From a virus (Duplodnaviria > Heunggongvirae > Uroviricota > Caudoviricetes), in the IMG/VR virus record IMGVR_UViG_2925914267_000006, positions 1 to 25,567 of that record: a stretch of 25,567 nucleotides of DNA; one strand, given 5' to 3'. A program made the translations under genes and the position numbers. This document shows, piece after piece, positions 5,108-22,720 of this stretch. Within the stretch, counting starts at the first letter, position 1. Each line of letters opens with the position of its first letter. Under the pieces are notes generated by a model. The model ran no database searches. It saw nothing but the letters and a program-made list of their open reading frames with translations, and had not been told where the DNA came from.

Positions 5108-6190
5108 ATGAAAAAATTAACAGTGGCAATTTCTGCTGTAGCTGCATCAGTACTGATGGCGATGTCTGCTCAGGCAGCTGAAATTTATAATAAAGACAGT
5201 AACAAGCTGGATCTGTACGGGAAAGTTAATGCTAAGCACTACTTCTCCTCTAATGATGCAGATGATGGTGATACTACTTATGCCCGTCTTGGCTTCAAAG
5301 GTGAAACCCAAATCAACGATCAACTGACTGGTTTCGGTCAGTGGGAATATGAATTCAAAGGCAACCGCGCTGAATCTCAAGGTTCCTCCAAAGATAAAAC
5401 CCGTCTTGCCTTCGCTGGCCTGAAATTCGGTGACTACGGCTCCATCGATTATGGCCGTAACTACGGTGTAGCATACGATATTGGTGCATGGACCGACGTT
5501 CTGCCAGAATTCGGTGGCGATACCTGGACCCAAACAGATGTATTCATGACTGGTCGCACCACAGGTGTTGCAACTTATCGTAACAACGACTTCTTTGGTC
5601 TGGTTGATGGCCTGAACTTTGCAGCTCAGTATCAGGGCAAAAATGACCGAAATGAAGTAACTGAAGCTAATGGCGATGGTTTCGGTTTCTCAACTACTTA
5701 TGAGTATGAAGGATTCGGCGTGGGTGCAACCTATGCTAAATCTGATCGCACTAATAATCAGGTTATCTACGGTAACAACGGTCTGAATGCTTCTGGTCAA
5801 AATGCTGAAGTATGGGCAGCTGGTCTGAAATATGATGCGAACAACATCTATCTGGCCACCACCTATTCTGAAACCCAGAACATGACTGTTTTTGGTAATA
5901 ACCATATTGCCAACAAAGCACAAAACTTCGAAGCTGTTGCACAATATCAGTTCGACTTCGGCCTGCGTCCATCCGTTGCTTACCTGCATTCTAAAGGAAA
6001 AGACTTGGGTGTTTGGGGTGATCAGGACCTGGTTGAATATGTTGATGTAGGTGCAACCTATTACTTCAACAAAAATATGTCCACTTTTGTTGACTACAAA
6101 ATCAACCTGATTGATAAGAGCGATTTCACGAAAGCATCTGGCGTTGCTACCGATGATATCGTTGCTGTAGGTATGGTTTACCAGTTCTAA
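5108..6190 (+). CDS. nmpC: Intact general porin of the OmpC/NmpC/OmpD family (prophage-borne Lc-type porin)
   Basis: 360-aa protein with a signal peptide (ending AQA) and the porin C-terminal ...VGMVYQF; it matches NmpC as recalled and is full length here. Its upstream region looks AT-rich by eye. Confidence 0.9.
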
Positions 6191-6386: not shown

Positions 6387-7581
<1,195 letters not shown>

Positions 7582-9013: not shown

Positions 9014-9832
9014 TTAAGCAGCCATCTGATGATATTTTTCCCTGAAGGCTGCCGGGGAGATATTCCCCAGACGAGAGTGACGACGCTGACGATTGTAGAA
9101 AATCTCAATGTATTCCCGTATTACTGAGATGGCTTCATCCCGGTTATTAAAACGATAGTGGCTCAGGCTCTCATTTTTCAGCGTTCCCCAGAAGCTTTCC
9201 ATCGGAGCGTTGTCGTAACAGTTACCTTTACGCGACATTGATGTTTTCAGACCAAACTGCTCCTGTATGACCCGGTAATCGTATGCGCAGTACTGTGAAC
9301 CTCGATCAGAGTGGTGGATTAGCCCGGCAGGTGGGCGCTGGCTCCTGAGCGCCATAAACAGGGCTTTACCTGTCAGCTCTTTTGTCATGCGCTCTCCCAT
9401 GGCGTAGCCGACAATTTCGCACGTATAAACATCTTTGATGCCAGCGAGGTACAACCATCCCTCCTGTGTGGCAACATACGTCAGGTCCGCCACCCAGACC
9501 TGATTTGGTGCTGTAGGAGCGAACGTCTGGTTCAGCAGATTTGGCGCAACTGGCAGATTGTGGTTCGAGTTCGTAGTCGCTCTGAACTTGCGTTTCTGCT
9601 TACAGCGTAGCCTTAGCTCCTTACGAAGACGTGCCAGTCGGTCACGACCAACGATGATGCCATTCTCTGCCAGCTCCGTCTGGAGCCGCCGGGTTCCATA
9701 TGTTTCGCGAGTGCGGATATGTGCCACCTTAATCTCCAGTTTTAGCCGCTCATCACTTTGTTTTCTGTCTGAGGGTTCATGCTGTACCCAGTTGTAATAA
9801 CCGCTCCTGGATACACCAAATACCTGACACAT
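9014..9832 (-). CDS. IS3-family transposase OrfB (DDE integrase core)
   Basis: 272-aa ORF with typical IS3-family OrfB motifs (WVADLTYV, HHSDRGSQY, YDNAPMESFWGTLK). Confidence 0.88.
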   Translation of the reverse strand: MCQVFGVSRSGYYNWVQHEPSDRKQSDERLKLEIKVAHIRTRETYGTRRLQTELAENGIIVGRDRLARLRKELRLRCKQKRKFRATTNSNHNLPVAPNLLNQTFAPTAPNQVWVADLTYVATQEGWLYLAGIKDVYTCEIVGYAMGERMTKELTGKALFMALRSQRPPAGLIHHSDRGSQYCAYDYRVIQEQFGLKTSMSRKGNCYDNAPMESFWGTLKNESLSHYRFNNRDEAISVIREYIEIFYNRQRRHSRLGNISPAAFREKYHQMAA

Positions 9833-10757: not shown

Positions 10758-11375
10758 CTAACGTTGTTTAATAACATTCTGACGCAAATGTGGCAATTGT
10801 ACTCGACTCCACTTATCATCCTGCCACGGCTGGAATTTTACATGTGCCGTTTCTCTGGCGAGGATTGCTCGCGCTCTGGTGAGTATCTGGGGATATTCTT
10901 GCTCGATGGAAGTGAAGCGACCAGCTTCACGATGCTCCGCAACCTGAAGAAGAGGAGTAACGTTCTGGCAGGCGGTTAACATCGCATCCCCAGCTCGCCA
11001 TAACCAAGCAAGTGTGCAAAGTTCGTTATCAGTGAATTGTTTTGTGATCGGGGATTGTTGAACTTCTCGATCGAGAATATCCAGAACCCAGCGGCGGAAC
11101 TCTTTGGCTACAGGAGTTCGTGCAAACATGGCGATCAAATGAGCTCCGCGAAGGCTAAATACTCGAGACTCCTGCATTCCACGAGGGGTGGTCACTTTGA
11201 CCACCCTTGTCATCATATCTGTAAATTCATCTGAGTGACGAGAGTAAATGCGCTGAACTGCTTTATCGTCCGCATATTCCAGAGCTAAACCAACTTCAGT
11301 GGCAGTAAGCCAAATTCTGTTATTGTGGCAAATTGGGGTAAACGTCGTTTTGTGGAATGCTAATTGAGTAGTCAT
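10758..11375 (-). CDS. Bro-N / antirepressor-like DNA-binding protein
   Basis: The N-terminal pattern (FHKTTFTPICHNNRIWLTATEVGLALEYADDKAVQRIY...RVFSLRGAHLIAMFARTPVAKEFRRWVLDIL) resembles Bro-N domains of phage antirepressors. Family assignment is from recall only. Confidence 0.55.
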   Translation of the reverse strand: MTTQLAFHKTTFTPICHNNRIWLTATEVGLALEYADDKAVQRIYSRHSDEFTDMMTRVVKVTTPRGMQESRVFSLRGAHLIAMFARTPVAKEFRRWVLDILDREVQQSPITKQFTDNELCTLAWLWRAGDAMLTACQNVTPLLQVAEHREAGRFTSIEQEYPQILTRARAILARETAHVKFQPWQDDKWSRVQLPHLRQNVIKQR

Positions 11376-11530
11376 AGTTTCACCTCATCAGGTTAACCAT
11401 CACCACCAACGACGCCAATCGACTGGTGGTGAACTGTGCAAGGTTGGCGTAACCGGCTACTCAAATCCGGCGCTCCCGAAGAAGCCCTCACACAGCCCAC
11501 CATAATTTGGGCGTAGCCGTGCTTAGCGCA

Positions 11531-11552
11531 TAAAAAAACCGCTTAACGCGGT
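11531..11552 (-). terminator. Weak minus-strand terminator candidate upstream of the Bro-N-like gene
   Basis: On the minus strand ccgc-gttaa-gcgg is followed by a run of seven T; the stem is short. Confidence 0.3.
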
Positions 11553-11638
11553 ATGCGTTGAGTAGTATTCCGGGACGCCAATCCCGTGTGCCGATTTTGC
11601 GGCAACGCACAGAATATATCCCCAGATAAATCATGTCG

Positions 11639-11986: not shown

Positions 11987-12217
11987 TTAATTATTTTTCT
12001 TTAACTTGAAATTTCTTCCCATTGCTAGTGTTCTTCGAAGATTCGAATCATAAGCTGGTTGATAATATCTATCATAAAAATCCTTAATTGTCTGATGGTA
12101 AGTATCCAGCATCAAACCATAAAACCCCATGACCTTAAGATAATCCACCAAGGGAAATAAATAATCATCAGTCTGAACATCAGTATCAACATTATTTTTT
12201 TTGTTTTTTAACTTCAA
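11987..12217 (-). CDS. 76-aa ORF overlapping the 3' end of the STAND NTPase gene; possibly its frameshifted C-terminal extension
   Basis: TTG-initiated ORF in another frame relative to the NTPase; the two frames cross within an 8-nt A tract (T8 on the plus strand at about 12191-12198). AT-rich by eye. Confidence 0.35.
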   Translation of the reverse strand: MKLKNKKNNVDTDVQTDDYLFPLVDYLKVMGFYGLMLDTYHQTIKDFYDRYYQPAYDSNLRRTLAMGRNFKLKKNN

Positions 12218-13919
12218 ATTTGTATAAGTTTAACTCACCCTTATCCATCGTGCATGAAAAAAGGTCGTCAAAAATCAAATCAATTTTTGTCATAGGAACT
12301 CGTTCTTTTCCAGACATTATAGGTAGAATATCAATACCTAAGAGCGAACCTAATACAAAGTCGTAATGAAGCGAAATCACTGAGTCATTCGATGTCGAGT
12401 TGCCTTTGATAAATACTCTACTTAGTGCCGAGTCAAAAACATTCTCAACTCTCTCTCTCGTCATGTTTGCGACATCTACAACCCCCATATCACGAGAAGC
12501 TTTTATTGTGATTTCATCTATAAATGCTTTGGAATCTAGTGAATGTAAAAACAACATGAAGTTATCTAACTGTTCAGAGCATTTAATAGCCACCATAAGA
12601 TTTTCGTATATATCTTTTTTATACTCAATCGGTAAATTTGCTACCGCAAAAGCAGCATAAAATTCTTGCACTGATTTATGCAGAAAAACATACCTATTAT
12701 TTCCCTCAGGTTGGATAAGGCAAGTTATCTCAATAAGATCATCTATAAAGTTTGATGCATCTTCTTTAAGATAACCTTCTGTTTCAATAGCATCTTCAGC
12801 ATATCTAAGCAACTCCTCTCCCCAAAACTCAAATTTCTCCTCAATCAGTGCGTTATAGCAAATAGCTGAAAAACACAATTTAGCTTTTTCACCAATAATG
12901 TTTGATTTTTTCTCGCGCGTATATACTTTTATTTTATCATGCCTTGCATATAAGGTGTCAAAGAGGCTTCGATAAAACTCTATTATATTATTTGGAATAT
13001 CATTCATATAAGGATAACAATAATACAAAAGAGTAACTAAAATTGGATTGCAAATAGTTCCCTCAAGTTCTTCTTTATCACATAGTAAATCCGCCAAGAC
13101 TTTAAACGAGGCATCACTACTTGAGAATCTGTCATTTTTCGATAAAGAATGAAGAATACAAATCTTATCAGAAATATTTAGCTTATCTATAAAAATATTA
13201 TACACATCAGTAGTATAACATATATCTGTATTTGGTCTCGTTGTTGCGATAATTGGTGTGTTAAAATGATAATGAATGTTTTTTATTTCATTCATCATCA
13301 TAGTTCGCTCTTCATGTTTAACCTCATCAAATCCATCCAACATTAAAACGACTCTTTGGGATTGCAGTAATATTTTCAAGCTATCCTCTGAACACCCCAC
13401 ACCAAATGAATTAAGAATGTCTGCCAGATAAGCAATAATATTTGCATTCTTCACCCTTCTTAATTCAATAAAAAAAGGTATCCGTTCTGATTTTTTTATT
13501 TCCTCGCTAAACAACTTGCGTAAAATAGTACTTTTCCCTTGCCCCGCTATACCGACTATATTTACAATACCATGAAATGGTAAAGTGACCCCATCTTTTA
13601 TAACGACCTTGTCTTTATTAGATGCCACCTCAACAGTTAACGGATAATAAATATCATCTAAAAAAATATCATAATCAGCGTTGTGCAAAGTTCTCATTTT
13701 CAGAGATGGTAGCACATGCTTTCTTAAATAATTTTCTCTCCCGAGGGGATCATTTAATTGTTCGAGTATAACCTTGCCTTCATCTAGGTCCCTAGCCCAA
13801 GGTTTAGAGAGCAATACTTCTGTTATTTTTTCCGCAGCTTTTCCTACTGTGCTATTAATAATAGTCGCAAGAAACTCATCCATTTTTTCACCACATTCAT
13901 TAACCAATACGTGGTGCAT
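12192..13919 (-). CDS. STAND-class P-loop NTPase (NACHT-like), candidate antiphage or abortive-infection protein
   Basis: Walker A (GIAGQGKST), Walker B of NACHT type (VVLMLDGFDEV) and a TTRP motif (IIATTRP) at NACHT-like spacing. Both the gene and its flanks look AT-rich by eye. The start is uncertain: ATG at 13919 or 13883, with the track's TTG at 13940. Confidence 0.7.
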   Translation of the reverse strand: MHHVLVNECGEKMDEFLATIINSTVGKAAEKITEVLLSKPWARDLDEGKVILEQLNDPLGRENYLRKHVLPSLKMRTLHNADYDIFLDDIYYPLTVEVASNKDKVVIKDGVTLPFHGIVNIVGIAGQGKSTILRKLFSEEIKKSERIPFFIELRRVKNANIIAYLADILNSFGVGCSEDSLKILLQSQRVVLMLDGFDEVKHEERTMMMNEIKNIHYHFNTPIIATTRPNTDICYTTDVYNIFIDKLNISDKICILHSLSKNDRFSSSDASFKVLADLLCDKEELEGTICNPILVTLLYYCYPYMNDIPNNIIEFYRSLFDTLYARHDKIKVYTREKKSNIIGEKAKLCFSAICYNALIEEKFEFWGEELLRYAEDAIETEGYLKEDASNFIDDLIEITCLIQPEGNNRYVFLHKSVQEFYAAFAVANLPIEYKKDIYENLMVAIKCSEQLDNFMLFLHSLDSKAFIDEITIKASRDMGVVDVANMTRERVENVFDSALSRVFIKGNSTSNDSVISLHYDFVLGSLLGIDILPIMSGKERVPMTKIDLIFDDLFSCTMDKGELNLYKFEVKKQKK

Positions 13920-14271
13920 TCTTACAAGACTCAGTAACAATTGTCAATCATAGGTTTTCGCATGATTGCAAAACGCCATAAACAATTGTAGCACCATAAT
14001 TTTAAACACTATATAATATACAACCTTCCTACAAGCATTCAGTACATCGCTTAATCACAGGGCTTGAATATATAGTAAGGAATCGATATTAATCACCTCA
14101 TCTACTTTAAACATCTTACACACCTATAATTTATAATAGTCAACACGAGGTCATCATATTAAACATGCAATTACAAACATTCATTTTTATATAAATTTTC
14201 ATGATTTAACCGTAGAGCGACGGTAATAAATTTCATATACAAGGATTTAAGCTCCCATACGTTTTCTATTA

Positions 14272-16770: not shown

Positions 16771-17001
16771 TTAAGCTGCGTTCTTTTCGGTGTGTGGAAA
16801 CAACTTCGGAAGATCCGGGCGAATCTGGTATGCCTTCACTACTCCACCAGTAGCCGTAACAATGCTGCCGACATGTTCAGGGGATACCTTTGCTTTGTTG
16901 TGAAGCCACTTATAGACGGCCTGCTGTGAAACTTCGCAAGCAGCGCCCAGTTTCTTTTGTGAACCAACGATATTGATCGCTGTTTTGATAGCTGGGTTCA
17001 T
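16771..17001 (-). CDS. Cro/YdaS-like HTH regulator in the cro position
   Basis: 76-aa ORF divergent from the repressor gene, with an HTH (GSQKKLGAACEVSQQAVYKWL) and a GGAGG ribosome-binding site. Confidence 0.7.
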   Translation of the reverse strand: MNPAIKTAINIVGSQKKLGAACEVSQQAVYKWLHNKAKVSPEHVGSIVTATGGVVKAYQIRPDLPKLFPHTEKNAA

Positions 17002-17105
17002 AACAACCTCCGTGGTTAATTTGAATCAAGATTAAAACTATGGTTGTTTTTAGTCAACAACCATTTTCGTTTGATGGAATAAAACCTTGGTTGTACATTT
17101 GGACT
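17002..17105. promoter_or_regulatory. Divergent immunity control region (OR / pR / pRM equivalent) with repeated AAAAC-N3-GGTTGT operator-like sites
   Basis: Intergenic region between the divergent cro-like and cI genes. It contains the 17-mers aaaactatggttgtttt (17035-17051) and aaaaccttggttgtaca (17081-17097) and the inverted repeat atggttgtt-N7-aacaaccat (17040-17064). Confidence 0.6.
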
Positions 17106-17795
17106 ATGAAAACAACACTCTCAGAAAGACTTAAAGAAGCCAGATTAGCGCGAGGCCTTACACAAAAGGCGCTTGGGGATTTGGTCGGGGTTAGCCAGGC
17201 TGCTATTCAGAAAATCGAAACAGGGAAAGCTAATCAAACAACTAAAATCGTGGAGATCGCGAACGCTTTGGGTGTGCGCGCAGAATGGTTATCTTCTGGC
17301 GTTGGAAATATGTCAGACAGTACAGTGCAACCAATACAATCAACTGTCAGCCATTCCAAATACTTCAAGATTGACGTTCTTGATATAGAAGTCAGTGCTG
17401 GGCCGGGAGTCATCAACCGTGAGTTTGTAGAAGTTCTACGCTCGGTTGAGTACTCGTTTGACGATGCTCGTCACATGTTCGATGGTAGGAAGGCGGAAAA
17501 TATCCGCATCATTAACGTGCGTGGTGACAGCATGTCAGGAACGATCGAACCAGGTGATCTGCTGTTCGTTGATATCACGGTTAAATCTTTCGACGGTGAT
17601 GGTATCTATGCGTTTCTGTACGACGACACAGCCCATGTAAAGCGCCTGCAAATGATGAAGGATAAGCTGCTGGTTATCTCTGATAACAAGAGCTACTCAC
17701 CGTGGGACCCGATCGAGAAAGACGAGATGAACCGGGTGTTCATCTTCGGTAAGGTTATTGGGAGCATGCCCCAGACGTACAGGAAACATGGATAA
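17106..17795 (+). CDS. cI: cI-type prophage repressor (HTH plus S24 LexA-like autopeptidase domain)
   Basis: N-terminal HTH (LTQKALGDLVGVSQAAIQKIE), Ala-Gly cleavage site (EVSAGPG), catalytic Ser (GDSM) and Lys (VKRL). The start is taken at the internal ATG (MKTTLSERLKEARL). Confidence 0.85.
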   Translation: MKTTLSERLKEARLARGLTQKALGDLVGVSQAAIQKIETGKANQTTKIVEIANALGVRAEWLSSGVGNMSDSTVQPIQSTVSHSKYFKIDVLDIEVSAGPGVINREFVEVLRSVEYSFDDARHMFDGRKAENIRIINVRGDSMSGTIEPGDLLFVDITVKSFDGDGIYAFLYDDTAHVKRLQMMKDKLLVISDNKSYSPWDPIEKDEMNRVFIFGKVIGSMPQTYRKHG

Positions 17796-17861
17796 TCAGT
17801 ACTGTGCTGATGAGTCGTTTAGGGGATAGTAAATTTAATTAGAATTAGACGAGAGCGATTT

Positions 17862-18725
17862 ATGGATTGTGACGCTTTACAGGATATAAAAATCTCTCTT
17901 AGGTATGACGGAAAAGATGCTTTAAATCATGAAATAGATTTGAACTGCCTAGGAGAATCCCTAAAGGGTTTTTCTAAAGTTCTCTCAACAGCAGCTTCTT
18001 TCTCTGTTACACAAAAATATAGTAAATACATTAATTATCAGGAAGTTAAGGTTTACGCACGCGAAGCAAAAGCTAACTGCTTTACTCTTGAAGCAGTTCT
18101 TAACTTCGCCACTCAGAACCAGTTGTTCTCGGGGATCGCCGCAACTATACTTGGCGCAATACTACAATATATTTTTGCGAGAAATTCTAACAAGAAAGAT
18201 GAAATGAAAGCTTTGCAGCAGTCACTTGAAAAGGCCATAGAGGCACTAGGAAACAAGGATGCTGGAACCATTGATAAGTTGATCTCTTTGATTGACCGAA
18301 TGGCTGTAGAGCTTCGCCCCTCTGTAAGGCAGGCAGTATCACCTATTGGTAATACTTGCGATCAGATAAGTGTTGCAACAAATGTTGACGGCTGCCTTCT
18401 AAAAGTTAACGAGAGAGATAAAGCTGAAATTGATAGGCTTGATGATGATGAAGTTCTCGGTCTTCGTGAGTATCGTGCTTTTCTTACAGAATTTGATGCA
18501 CAAAATATGACAGCTAAAATAATTTTAGATGGTGATGACTCAAAAAAGAGAATCACTGCTGAAATTAGCGATCCAGCTGCAGGAAAGAAGAATAACCCGT
18601 ATATTAGAGCTCTTAGTGCATATATATCAACCAAAGGTGATCCATCTGCAGTATTCACTATAACCGCAAAGGCTACTGTTAAAAAAGGCCAGATAAACAG
18701 GTTATTTATTGTAGATGCGAAATGA
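17862..18725 (+). CDS. Unrecognised 287-aa protein downstream of the repressor on the same strand (rex position), candidate exclusion gene
   Basis: Follows cI after 66 bp and is closed by a strong terminator. It has one central hydrophobic segment ([18 protein letters not shown]), no resemblance to lambda RexA/RexB, and looks AT-rich by eye. Confidence 0.6.
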
Positions 18726-18728
18726 TTT

Positions 18729-18756
18729 CCCCGGCCGTCGTGCCGGGTTTTCTTTT
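18729..18756 (+). terminator. Rho-independent terminator ending the repressor operon
   Basis: Stem cccggc / gccggg with loop cgtcgt, followed by ttttctttt. Confidence 0.75.
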
Positions 18757-18859
18757 GCCTCCCCTCATCACACAAACCGTTCAAAAAACCACCACGACCT
18801 CGCTTCAGTTATCGCTGTGCGATGCAAGTCACAAAATAAATCCATCCTAAATACAACCA

Positions 18860-18925
18860 GTTATATCTAAAACAACCAATAAAACAACTTTTGTTGTTGA
18901 TGATAAAACAACTATAGTTTTAAAT
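18860..18925. promoter_or_regulatory. Putative OL / pL region with operator-like repeats
   Basis: aaaacaacc (18869), aaaacaacttttgttgtt (18881-18898, inverted half-sites) and aaaacaactatagtttt (18905-18921). The last is the reverse complement of the OR 17-mer with one mismatch. Confidence 0.5.
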
Positions 18926-19202
18926 AAGTTCATCGCAACAACACAACGATACGGCAACTACCTGATTCACCGTTGCGATGACCGCTTAGATCCGCAGTTT
19001 GAATTTCAGCAGGCTTCGGGGAGTGCGAGGGGTGAAACGGACGCGTGAACGTCGGTGTGACCAGCTGAAATTAACTCAACATTTCATACCTTAGTCGCTT
19101 CAACGAGGCGGCTTAGTTATGACAACCGGCGGCCATCCACCGCCTGAATACGCGCAGAAGTCTCTATATGTTCAGCAGCCCAGCTTACGGGCAGGAGTTT
19201 TT

Positions 19203-19409
19203 ATGGTTCATCAACATTATGGAACGCAGACCGTTAATCGAGGTGCGGTCATGCCAGGAATGCTGGTCAAACACAAAGATGGTACCTGGACTGCATCAGC
19301 TAATTTACGCGGACGGCTTTATCTGCATCGCGGCATCGAGCGCACTTATACCCGTGATTTGCTCGTGGAAGTTTTTCTCGACGGACGCGGTAACGGCCTG
19401 AATCACTAA
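19203..19409 (+). CDS. Hypothetical 68-aa protein, first gene of the leftward early operon (kil position)
   Basis: ATG preceded by AGGAG with a 7-nt spacer, directly upstream of gam. It does not resemble lambda Kil, cIII or N. Confidence 0.45.
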
Positions 19410-20685: not shown

Positions 20686-21012
20686 ATGACTAAAAATACT
20701 CGTTTTTCCCCCGAAGTCCGTCAGCGGGCGATTCGTATGGTTCTGGAAAGTCAGGATGAATATGACTCACAGTGGGCGGCAATTTGTTCCATTGCCCCAA
20801 AGATTGGCTGTACGCCGGAGACTCTGCGTGTCTGGGTTCGCCAGCATGAGCGGGATACCGGGGGCGGTGATGGTGGGCTCACCAGTGCTGAACGTCAGCG
20901 TCTGAAAGAGCTGGAACGTGAAAATCGTGAACTGCGCCGCAGTAACGATATCCTTCGCCAGGCTTCCGCTTATTTTGCGAAGGCGGAGTTCGACCGCCTC
21001 TGGAAAAAATGA
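20686..21012 (+). CDS. IS629 OrfA
   Basis: 108-aa protein [42 protein letters not shown]... matching IS629-group OrfA as recalled. Confidence 0.88.
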
Positions 21013-21899
21013 TGCCACTGCTGGATAAGCTGCGTGAGCAGTACGGGGTCGGACCGGTATGCAGCGAACTGCATATTGCCCCGTCAACGTATTACCATTG
21101 TCAGCAACAGCGACATCATCCGGATAAACGCAGTGCCCGTGCGCAGCACGACGACTGGCTGAAGAGAGAGATACAGCGCGTATACGATGAAAATCATCAG
21201 GTGTACGGTGTGCGTAAAGTCTGGCGTCAGTTGTTACGGGAAGGAATCAGGGTAGCCAGATGTACAGTGGCGCGCCTCATGGCGGTTATGGGACTTGCCG
21301 GTGTTCTCCGGGGTAAAAAGGTCCGCACTACCGTCAGCCGGAAAGCCGTTGCCGCAGGCGACCGCGTAAACCGTCAGTTTGTGGCAGAACGACCTGACCA
21401 GCTGTGGGTGGCTGATTTTACTTACGTCAGCACATGGCAGGGCTTCGTCTATGTGGCGTTTATCATTGATGTGTTTGCCGGATACATCGTGGGGTGGCGG
21501 GTCTCATCGTCTATGGAAACGACATTCGTGCTGGATGCGCTGGAGCAGGCGTTGTGGGCCCGTCGTCCGTCTGGCACCATCCATCACAGCGATAAAGGCT
21601 CTCAGTATGTGTCACTGGCCTATACGGAGCGACTAAAAGAAGCCGGATTACTGGCATCAACAGGGAGTACAGGCGACTCGTATGACAACGCGATGGCTGA
21701 GAGCATCAATGGTCTTTACAAAGCGGAGGTAATACACCGTAAGAGCTGGAAAAACCGTGCAGAAGTGGAACTGGCCACACTAACGTGGGTGGACTGGTAT
21801 AACAATCGACGATTGCTGGGAAGGCTGGGCCATACTCCTCCGGCAGAAGCAGAAAAAGCTTATTATGCTTCCATCGGAAACGATGATCTGGCAGCCTGA
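21009..21899 (+). CDS. IS629 OrfB (DDE transposase core)
   Basis: 296-aa protein with IS3-family OrfB motifs ([31 protein letters not shown]). Confidence 0.88.
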
Positions 21900-22558
21900 G
21901 TTCACAGATAAAACACTCTCCAGGAAACCCGGGGCGGTTCAGATGATGCATGGCACAAATTACGGCTCGGCGTCATCACCGCTTCAGAAGTTCACAACGT
22001 GATAGCAAAGCCCCGCTCAGGAAAGAAGTGGCCTGACATGAAAATGTCCTACTTCCACACCCTGCTGGCTGAGGTTTGCACCGGTGTGGCTCCGGAAGTT
22101 AATGCTAAGGCGCTGGCCTGGGGAAAACAGTACGAGAACGACGCCAGAACCCTGTTTGAATTCACTTCCGGCGTGAATGTTACTGAATCCCCGATCATCT
22201 ATCGCGACGAAAGTATGCGCACCGCCTGCTCTCCCGATGGTTTATGCAGTGACGGCAACGGCCTTGAACTGAAATGCCCGTTTACCTCCCGGGATTTCAT
22301 GAAATTCCGGCTCGGTGGTTTTGAGGCAATAAAATCGGCTTACATGGCCCAGGTGCAGTACAGCATGTGGGTGACGCGAAAAGATGCCTGGTACTTTGCC
22401 AACTATGACCCGCGCATGAAGCGTGAAGGCCTGCATTATGTCGTGATTGAGCGGAATGAAAAGTACATGGCGAGTTTTGACGAGATGGTGCCGGAGTTCA
22501 TCGAAAAAATGGACGAGGCACTGGCTGAAATTGGTTTTGTATTTGGGGAGCAATGGCG

Positions 22559-22720
22559 ATGAAGCATCCTCACGATAATATCCGGGTAGGCACGATCACT
22601 TTCGTCTACTCCGTTACAAAGCGAGGCTGGATATTTCCCGGCCTTTCTGTTATCCGAAATCCCCTGAAAGCACAGCGGCTGGCTGAGGAGATAAATAATA
22701 AACGGGGGCTGTATGACTGA
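22559..22720 (+). CDS. 53-aa hypothetical protein of the exo-xis region
   Basis: The ATG overlaps the exo stop (ATGA) and the stop overlaps the methyltransferase start; translated by hand as [24 protein letters not shown]... Confidence 0.45.

Follow-up and report, generated by a model that had tools for sequence, protein, structure and literature searches.

A single-gene cargo cassette of the DUF7946/DUF7947 family at the end of a lambdoid repressor operon: a candidate phage-exclusion gene

In phage lambda the repressor operon carries, between cI and OL/pL, the two rex genes, which encode a sensor, RexA, and a multi-pass membrane channel, RexB, the latter with four transmembrane segments. Cargo of cI operons serving the lysogen is also represented by BstA of the Salmonella prophage BTP1, the product of a single gene of about 300 codons located downstream of the prophage repressor, often found behind diverse repressors and highly expressed in lysogeny, for which an abortive-infection phenotype is proven (PMC8585504). 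The cI-N region has been described as a mosaic hotspot, holding both rexAB and bstA, and the cI promoter as highly active in lysogens (Owen et al. 2021, PMC8585504). The same slot is occupied in phi80 by gene 40A (YP_007947967.1; WP_000432054.1 in DH10B and DH5alpha), in the order cI, 40A, terminator, OL/pL. Here we describe a relative of 40A, uncharacterised like 40A itself, which encodes a protein of 287 amino acids in a 25,567-nucleotide stretch of DNA of the class Caudoviricetes (IMG/VR virus record IMGVR_UViG_2925914267_000006), hereafter called the window. As judged from sequence comparisons, it very probably represents a single-gene cassette located at the end of the repressor operon, transcribed together with cI from pRM in lysogens, dispensable for immunity, kept under purifying selection and found repeatedly behind unrelated repressors. 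The protein is probably made in every lysogen.

The prophage of the window is a lambdoid prophage of Escherichia coli, matching many complete genomes, such as TK3896, where the copy adjoins a tRNA-Thr gene and proA. The features of its immunity region are listed below, by their position in the window; E denotes the expectation value of a match.

16771-17001, minus strand: cro-like gene, divergent from cI (Pfam YdaS_toxin, E 4e-17, and P22_Cro, E 8e-5; 'transcriptional regulator' in RefSeq)
17030-17094: OR operator region between cro and cI, made of a palindrome and repeats, where pRM and pR are expected
17106-17795, plus strand: cI-type repressor (Pfam Peptidase_S24, E 1.5e-18, and HTH_3, E 6.5e-13), start taken from RefSeq
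17862-18725, plus strand: 287-amino-acid gene, ATG start, DUF7946-DUF7947 / phi80 gp40A family (RefSeq WP_000340376.1, 'DUF7946 domain-containing protein')
18730-18757, plus strand: Rho-independent terminator closing the cI operon, a GC hairpin followed by a T-run, part of the backbone
18847-18923: OL operator repeats containing AAAACAAC, where pL is expected

The longest open reading frame (ORF) of cI starts at 17040, the RefSeq start corresponding to 17106; a YdaT-family gene (Pfam) is also divergent from it. The 287-amino-acid gene follows cI after a gap of 66 nucleotides, within which no terminator-like site was found on the plus strand. The terminator lies 4 nucleotides past the stop codon of the gene and is formed by CCCGGCCGTCGTGCCGGG at 18730-18747, followed by TTTTCTTTTG, with 6 G-C pairs and a folding energy of -12.1 kcal/mol. 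A preliminary description of the region had proposed a single gene directly 3' of cI, on the same strand and closed by a terminator, and all three elements were found. Of the extent which it assigned to the gene, 17862-18756, the start was right, while the end takes in the terminator, the ORF stopping at 18725. The AT-rich composition it had noticed is evident from a GC content of 38.4%, versus 46.3% for the window; cI stands at 47.0%.

The OR region includes a palindrome with arms of 9 bp at 17040-17064 and direct repeats at 17030-17047 and 17077-17094, and a 19-nucleotide OR site recurs, inverted, at 18905-18923. The AAAACAAC repeats, located at 18847-18859, 18869-18878, 18879-18895 and 18903-18923, are complementary to the OR site. 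Since the OR palindrome and the OL relatives flank it on the two sides, the gene lies inside the immunity region. The order cI, 287-amino-acid gene, terminator, OL/pL matches the placement of rexAB in lambda: position and strand correspond, with respect to cI, OL and pL, and so does, as predicted here, co-expression with cI; the rex-equivalent position initially suggested is therefore the correct one. The slot is also that of phi80 40A, which has a different cI allele upstream and a gap of 136 nucleotides, versus 66 in the window. Between OL/pL and kil (18924-19202) no N-like ORF was found, N being located there in both phi80 and lambda; kil maps, by RefSeq annotation, to 19203-19409.

The limits of the exchangeable unit were defined by comparison with three phages, PhiR5_1, PhiR47_2 and PhiR34_1, carrying a cI gene 97-99% identical, at the nucleotide level, to that of the window.

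17796-18729, plus strand: exchangeable cargo cassette, composed of the 66-nucleotide leader and the gene, with junctions common to the three phages

Their alignment with the window stops at 17791-17795 and resumes exactly at 18730, the first base of the terminator stem. Between these junctions, PhiR5_1 carries a HipA_2 kinase and a DUF3037 protein (locus L019, 1519-3092) and PhiR47_2 the 'GevT/GevA' pair, in which GevA has an ASCH domain (locus L020, 1465-2893), while in PhiR34_1, whose record is that of a complete phage genome and names MG1655 as host, the slot is empty (about 125 bp; locus L021, 1397-1517). Because homology with the cargo-variant phages resumes at 18730, the terminator is, on this alignment, part of the backbone and not of the gene cassette. 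Given the exchange of cassettes at these junctions, any insert would be read through from cI; and, as the same cI also occurs beside other cargo or beside an empty slot, the 287-amino-acid gene is dispensable for the immunity switch. The stretch between cI and pL thus resembles a socket into which cargoes are plugged and exchanged, its fixed junctions being the stop codon of cI and the operon terminator. The HipA_2/DUF3037 and GevT/GevA cassettes share slot, junctions and cI allele with the window gene, but are two-gene, toxin-antitoxin-like modules, made of unrelated proteins. Both match candidate defence families in PADLOC, PDC-M66 for HipA_2/DUF3037 (E about 1e-15) and PDC-M11 for GevT/GevA (E 2e-133 and 7e-52), and the slot is a cargo hotspot. 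A literature search on GevT/GevA and on the PhiR phage names found nothing relevant.

The association of the family with repressors was evaluated on a set of 87 loci, made of 73 IMG/VR loci and of individual look-ups, locus L016 being counted from its look-up. A profile derived from eight cI proteins was used to search the upstream ORFs on the same strand, and repressors were assigned to separate clusters when less than 60% identical. A check for homologs lying beside repressors elsewhere, proposed in the preliminary description, gave a clear answer: in 79 of the 87 loci the gene is preceded, on the same strand, by a cI-type repressor, usually encoded by the adjacent ORF. After dereplication, 12 gene clusters and 17 repressor clusters were obtained, and a repressor is located upstream in 23 of the 28 distinct combinations; the allele cluster of the window pairs, by itself, with six different repressor clusters. 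Repressors limited to a helix-turn-helix (HTH) domain, similar to RacR, are included, and the hosts span Enterobacterales and Neisseriales. The gene comes directly after an S24 repressor in Vitreoscilla (49% identity), in three different Morganella prophages and in Neisseria; it follows an HTH-only, RacR-like repressor in Klebsiella, and is separated from the repressor by two or three small ORFs in two metagenomic prophages. Copies located within the slot (phi80, Klebsiella, Morganella, Vitreoscilla, Neisseria and others) are followed, within about 50 nucleotides, by a GC hairpin and a T-run; such a terminator is not found downstream of the copies located outside it. Exceptions to the association with a repressor come from prophages of Helicobacter and of Chromobacterium, the latter encoding the gene on the opposite strand, and from two loci that lie close to integrases or transposases. 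The GC content of the gene was tested at 11 loci, and is lower than that of its surroundings in each of them. The variety of repressors, the terminators of the slot, the exceptions and the low GC content, taken together, indicate, at the level of sequence, a mobile cassette, under selection to be expressed in the lysogen, and not the co-evolving partner of one repressor.

Obligate coupling to an S24 repressor is ruled out by the HTH-only repressors, the empty slot and the alternative cargoes. The existence of a conserved partner gene was also considered and discarded: the small convergent ORFs located downstream in phi80, Klebsiella and locus L008 are mutually non-homologous and absent from the window cassette. 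Just past the gene, additional cargo of the defence type is encoded in other hosts, namely a protein with a SIR2_2 domain in Vitreoscilla (locus L003, 7661-9274) and a HigB/HigA pair in Neisseria (locus L009, 4019-4564).

The very tight and repeated linkage to a repressor gene could suggest an accessory regulator, which would modulate the lysis-lysogeny switch or induction through the stability of the repressor, its RecA-dependent cleavage or the balance between Cro and CI. Lambda RexA has been reported to act as an accessory regulator of this kind. The OB-like domain (from oligonucleotide/oligosaccharide binding) predicted at the C-terminus of the protein could bind DNA or single-stranded DNA, and phi80 is noted for its hair-trigger induction (PMC2885432). 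However, one and the same cI allele works beside different cargoes and beside an empty slot, the partners belong to 17 unrelated repressor clusters, some of them without S24 domain, and some members of the family are located away from any repressor; a regulatory function appears, on balance, quite improbable.

The protein belongs, by profile and sequence searches, to a family already catalogued, to which no function is assigned. Pfam DUF7946 matches amino acids 11-191 (187.2 bits, cutoff 27, E 4e-55, profile positions 1-183 of 183) and is followed, on the C-terminal side, by DUF7947 at amino acids 201-287 (67.1 bits, cutoff 27, E 1e-18); PHROG 5147, of unknown function, matches the protein end to end. 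The phi80 40A protein, which contains both Pfam domains, is 62% identical over 99% of the length (tblastn); in the old phi80 entry X13065 the gene is split into 40A and 40B. The definition 'unrecognised', given to the product in the preliminary description, is therefore valid for its function and not for its sequence family. The label 'acetate kinase superfamily', present in the phi80 record, was rejected, as no ASKHA match was found in Pfam or NCBIfam at E<=1, nor among PDB folds.

The conservation of the ORF, the lack of which the preliminary description had listed among possible refutations, is extensive. Searches identified 88 close relatives and, at E<1e-3, a total of 495 clusters at 50% identity, nearly all formed by colinear proteins of 265-310 amino acids; the two DUF domains, and nothing else, were found in all of the 59 diverse members tested. 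Among 107 aligned diverse members, G17, S33, G36, P161, G163, D237 and Y247 are near-invariant, while more than 80% of the members share Y15, H23, P238, N245 and K270; the 287-amino-acid protein has the family residues Y15, G17, H23, S33, G36, P161, G163, D237, P238, Y247 and K270. The ratio of nonsynonymous to synonymous substitution rates (dN/dS) is 0.06 between the window and Klebsiella alleles (90% amino acid identity), and the reading frame is intact in 11 out of 11 lineages examined. Distribution in E. coli is patchy: 77 of 5426 complete genomes carry the window allele, none of them at less than 99% identity, while 2211 genomes match some part of a 2-kb query including cI, the gene and the downstream flank. 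On the sequence evidence of 88 close relatives, 495 clusters and a dN/dS of 0.06, the ORF is a real gene and not a chance ORF. A functionless or decaying passenger might be suspected, as IS1 splits the gene in two of the 77 E. coli copies (H81 and H112) and the window prophage is riddled with insertion sequences (IS). This explanation is nevertheless very improbable, being effectively ruled out by the low dN/dS, the intact frames and the full-length, colinear clusters with near-invariant residues.

Several cluster representatives of 160-173 amino acids (P0153, P0165, P0170, P0184 and others) begin exactly at the methionine equivalent to M115 (codon at 18204-18206), which all close relatives share and which occurs in 49% of the diverse ones. 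These short proteins may be truncated gene calls, or may derive from an internal start, and would then lack the N-terminal head and the hydrophobic helix described below.

The sequence was compared with those of the described systems. As already noticed in the preliminary description, there is no similarity to RexA or RexB: the probability assigned by hhalign is 0.2% for each, no Rex match was obtained in Pfam or PADLOC, and RexA is not among the structural matches of the protein. The organization also differs, Rex being formed by two genes and the window cassette by one, whose product has one borderline hydrophobic helix. Homology to BstA was not detected, since PADLOC reports only PDC-S42 and Pfam no KilA-N domain. 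PDC-S42 is a single-gene candidate for phage defence, of similar length (302 amino acids), and its match to the 287-amino-acid protein is weak and partial (E 1.5e-4, 19 bits), confined to an N-terminal part of 110-120 residues (amino acids 9-127, profile positions 4-113 of 302). Of 59 members of the family, 14 match the same profile, the best one at E 3.2e-8, which indicates, on sequence grounds, a remote relative and not a member. This match is the sole signal for the family in defence databases; in NCBIfam only a sub-threshold N-terminal match, to LAPAL_fam, was obtained.

The slot itself, the nature of the competing cargoes, the pattern of mobility and selection and the link to PDC-S42 lead us to favour, tentatively, a function as a lysogen-expressed, narrow-spectrum phage-exclusion factor. 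Abortive infection is a proven phenotype for BstA, whereas exclusion has the status of a candidate role for the window gene. The slot guarantees expression in the lysogen also for a lysogenic-conversion factor, providing the host with a benefit unrelated to phages (envelope or stress physiology, or colonisation) and simply carried in the best-expressed position of the prophage. Low GC content and moron-like character would fit this origin, and genes of the conversion type are present both in the related TK3896 prophage, which carries iss, and in the window, with a porin gene. Yet the protein lacks an export signal and resembles no known conversion factor in Pfam or NCBIfam, the alternative cargoes are toxin-antitoxin or defence-candidate modules and not virulence genes, and the family is remotely linked to PDC-S42; conversion is, in our opinion, an unlikely function.

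A structural model of the protein was built by AlphaFold2 from an alignment of 22 sequences, with a mean predicted local distance difference test (pLDDT) score of 78.9 and high values (82-92) from residue 100 on. The regions relevant to function are the following.

17892-18434, plus strand: DUF7946 part, amino acids 11-191; a strand/helix head with the Y15-G17-A20-H23-S33-G36 motif, followed by a helical region
18123-18179, plus strand: hydrophobic Gly/Ala-rich helix, amino acids 88-106, from the Kyte-Doolittle profile
18462-18722, plus strand: DUF7947 part, amino acids 201-287; an OB-like five-stranded barrel with conserved D237-P238, N245, Y247 and K270

The elements predicted along the chain are a short strand (amino acids 11-16), a long helix (27-50), two short strands, the hydrophobic helix (here 92-108), an amphipathic helical hairpin (112-158), a beta hairpin (168-183) and a five-stranded barrel (197-287). 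The latter, a closed barrel in the predicted structure, fits the OB fold, and its nearest structural matches are the periplasmic OB proteins SilF/CusF and YgiW. The remote-homology and Foldseek comparisons, suggested in the preliminary description, produced no confident match to a characterised protein: Foldseek of the model against the PDB found none at E<=1e-3, no significant match came from the PDB sequences searched by profile, and a search of the BFVD structures returned three matches, all to uncharacterised phage proteins. While cargo serving the lysogen is already known for cI operons (PMC8585504), this combination of family and fold has no characterised relative, and therefore defence, if true, would use a new route.

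The single hydrophobic segment initially reported corresponds to amino acids 88-106, the only strongly hydrophobic stretch of the protein (Kyte-Doolittle mean over 19 residues, 1.85). The same position is hydrophobic in 22 of 22 close relatives (values between 1.5 and 2.5), with many Gly, Ala and Ser residues, and the 107 diverse members show a family-wide hydrophobicity peak at position 88. Insertion of this helix into the membrane is possible, on the basis of sequence composition, and perhaps conditional.

A mechanism in which a single polypeptide acts both as sensor and as effector can be drawn from the architecture of the model, and should be considered doubtful. The C-terminal OB-like barrel, possibly together with the conserved N-terminal head, would bind nucleic acid or protein of the superinfecting phage. 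Recognition would free the Gly/Ala-rich helix and the amphipathic hairpin, which could then associate or oligomerise at the inner membrane, and infection would be aborted or blocked. The membrane effect is modelled on Rex, and the outcome would be Rex-like, obtained without Rex-like proteins. Operon anatomy, cassette exchange, conservation and domain architecture are directly supported by the data; sensing, membrane action and exclusion are what we infer.

A phenotype possibly related to the family has been described for phi80, whose lysogens block T4 and reduce P1 tenfold, no gene having been named (Rotman et al., PMC2885432). The cI-40A segment of phi80 is found at 100% identity in DH5alpha, DH10B, NEB5-alpha/10-beta, TOP10, JM83, XL10-Gold and EPI300, so that a member of the family is present, within an intact repressor operon, in the standard cloning strains. 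In DH10B (segment L018, NC_010473.1 1358581-1360294) the whole early/immunity region of phi80 is kept at 100% identity.

Several observations weigh against an exclusion function, and against the mechanism outlined for it. Lambda, imm21 and imm434 plate normally on phi80 lysogens (PMC2885432), and DH10B is a plaque host for T4, T5, T7, lambda, N4, EdH4, MM02 and SUSP1 (Adler et al. 2022, PMC9712115), which makes broad exclusion by the phi80 40A allele unlikely. PADLOC gives no match to a validated defence family, the PDC families being candidates and not proven systems; no published validation of PDC-S42 was found in the literature, nor was a demonstrated phenotype found for any member of the family by searching for DUF7946, DUF7947, 40A and the accession numbers. 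A catalytic motif was not found among the conserved residues. Confidence in the model is low in the N-terminal third (pLDDT 47-82), and the usual transmembrane threshold, a Kyte-Doolittle value of 1.6, is reached by only 48% of the diverse members, with some segments being charged; a constitutive transmembrane helix across the whole family is, on these values, unsupported. Moreover, judging from the distribution of charges, an N-terminal domain of 87 amino acids would lie outside the cell although it is devoid of signal peptide, an awkward arrangement.

Since DH10B keeps cI-40A and still plates the phages listed, 40A in its native operon is insufficient for gross exclusion, and it is unlikely to be, alone, the cause of the T4 block of phi80. 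40A may have modest effects, act on other targets or need a prophage function missing from phi80dlacZdeltaM15. The window allele may differ from 40A in specificity, given the identity of 62% between the two.

The narrow spectrum suggested by the plating of T4, T5, T7 and lambda on DH10B would also be expected of a superinfection-exclusion protein, anchored by its helix and blocking DNA entry at the inner membrane, in a way specific for the entry route and without killing, in the manner of SieA, HK97 gp15 or Ltp. The predicted expression in the lysogen, the presence of just one conserved hydrophobic helix, containing small-residue motifs, and the periplasmic nature of the OB proteins closest to the barrel all agree with it. 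On the other hand, neither a signal peptide nor a lipobox is present in the 287-amino-acid protein, the charge bias favours a C-terminal half located inside the cell, and half of the family has a weak hydrophobic segment. The known Sie proteins are, in addition, unrelated, none having emerged from the PADLOC, PHROG or fold searches. We consider a block of DNA entry an unlikely explanation.

Returning to exclusion by a lysogen-expressed, narrow-spectrum factor, occurrence behind at least 17 repressors in two bacterial orders, under strong purifying selection, makes the family a candidate of high value for a new mechanism of exclusion. Tests of it are also unusually easy, an allele being available in phi80, DH5alpha, DH10B and TOP10 and the T4 and P1 phenotype of phi80 lysogens being unexplained. 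If exclusion based on 40A were true, DH5alpha, DH10B and TOP10 would carry an unrecognised phage-defence gene. If the function were not defence, the tight linkage to repressors would point to an accessory role in lysogeny. That the family represents a new single-protein system of abortive infection or exclusion, specialised for prophage repressor operons, and that 40A, perhaps with a late-region prophage function missing from phi80dlacZdeltaM15, explains the T4 block and P1 interference of phi80, is a broader proposal, which we regard as improbable at present.

Other cargo and signs of decay are found elsewhere in the window. An IS3-family element is inserted just past bet (20686-21899, plus strand), with two ORFs and the Rfam ALIL frameshift pseudoknot at 20967-21083; after it, only a remnant of exo with a YqaJ domain is left (21999-22562). 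The recombination module is defective, as the prophage itself probably is. Further transposases are located on the late and nin side, namely IS1 (195-698), DDE_Tnp_1, IS5-like (6521-7513), and an rve-type, IS3-like one (9014-9832), and are consistent with a decaying, cryptic prophage in which the immunity operon is still intact.

A 582-amino-acid ORF for a NACHT/STAND NTPase (12192-13940, minus strand; Pfam E 3e-11), for which no PADLOC match was obtained, lies in an island of 30-37% GC between the replication genes and the nin region, and is probably a bacterial NLR-like defence gene, occupying a second cargo site of the prophage. The Rfam C4 antisense RNA and isrK (11422-11507 and 11532-11604, both on the minus strand) adjoin an antirepressor-like gene with Bro-N and P22_AR_C domains (10758-11375, minus strand), and the whole looks like a secondary immunity module of the P1/P7 C4-ant type, located within a lambdoid prophage. 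Finally, the general porin gene mentioned above (5108-6190, plus strand; Porin_1, E 4e-152) is a typical cargo of lysogenic conversion.

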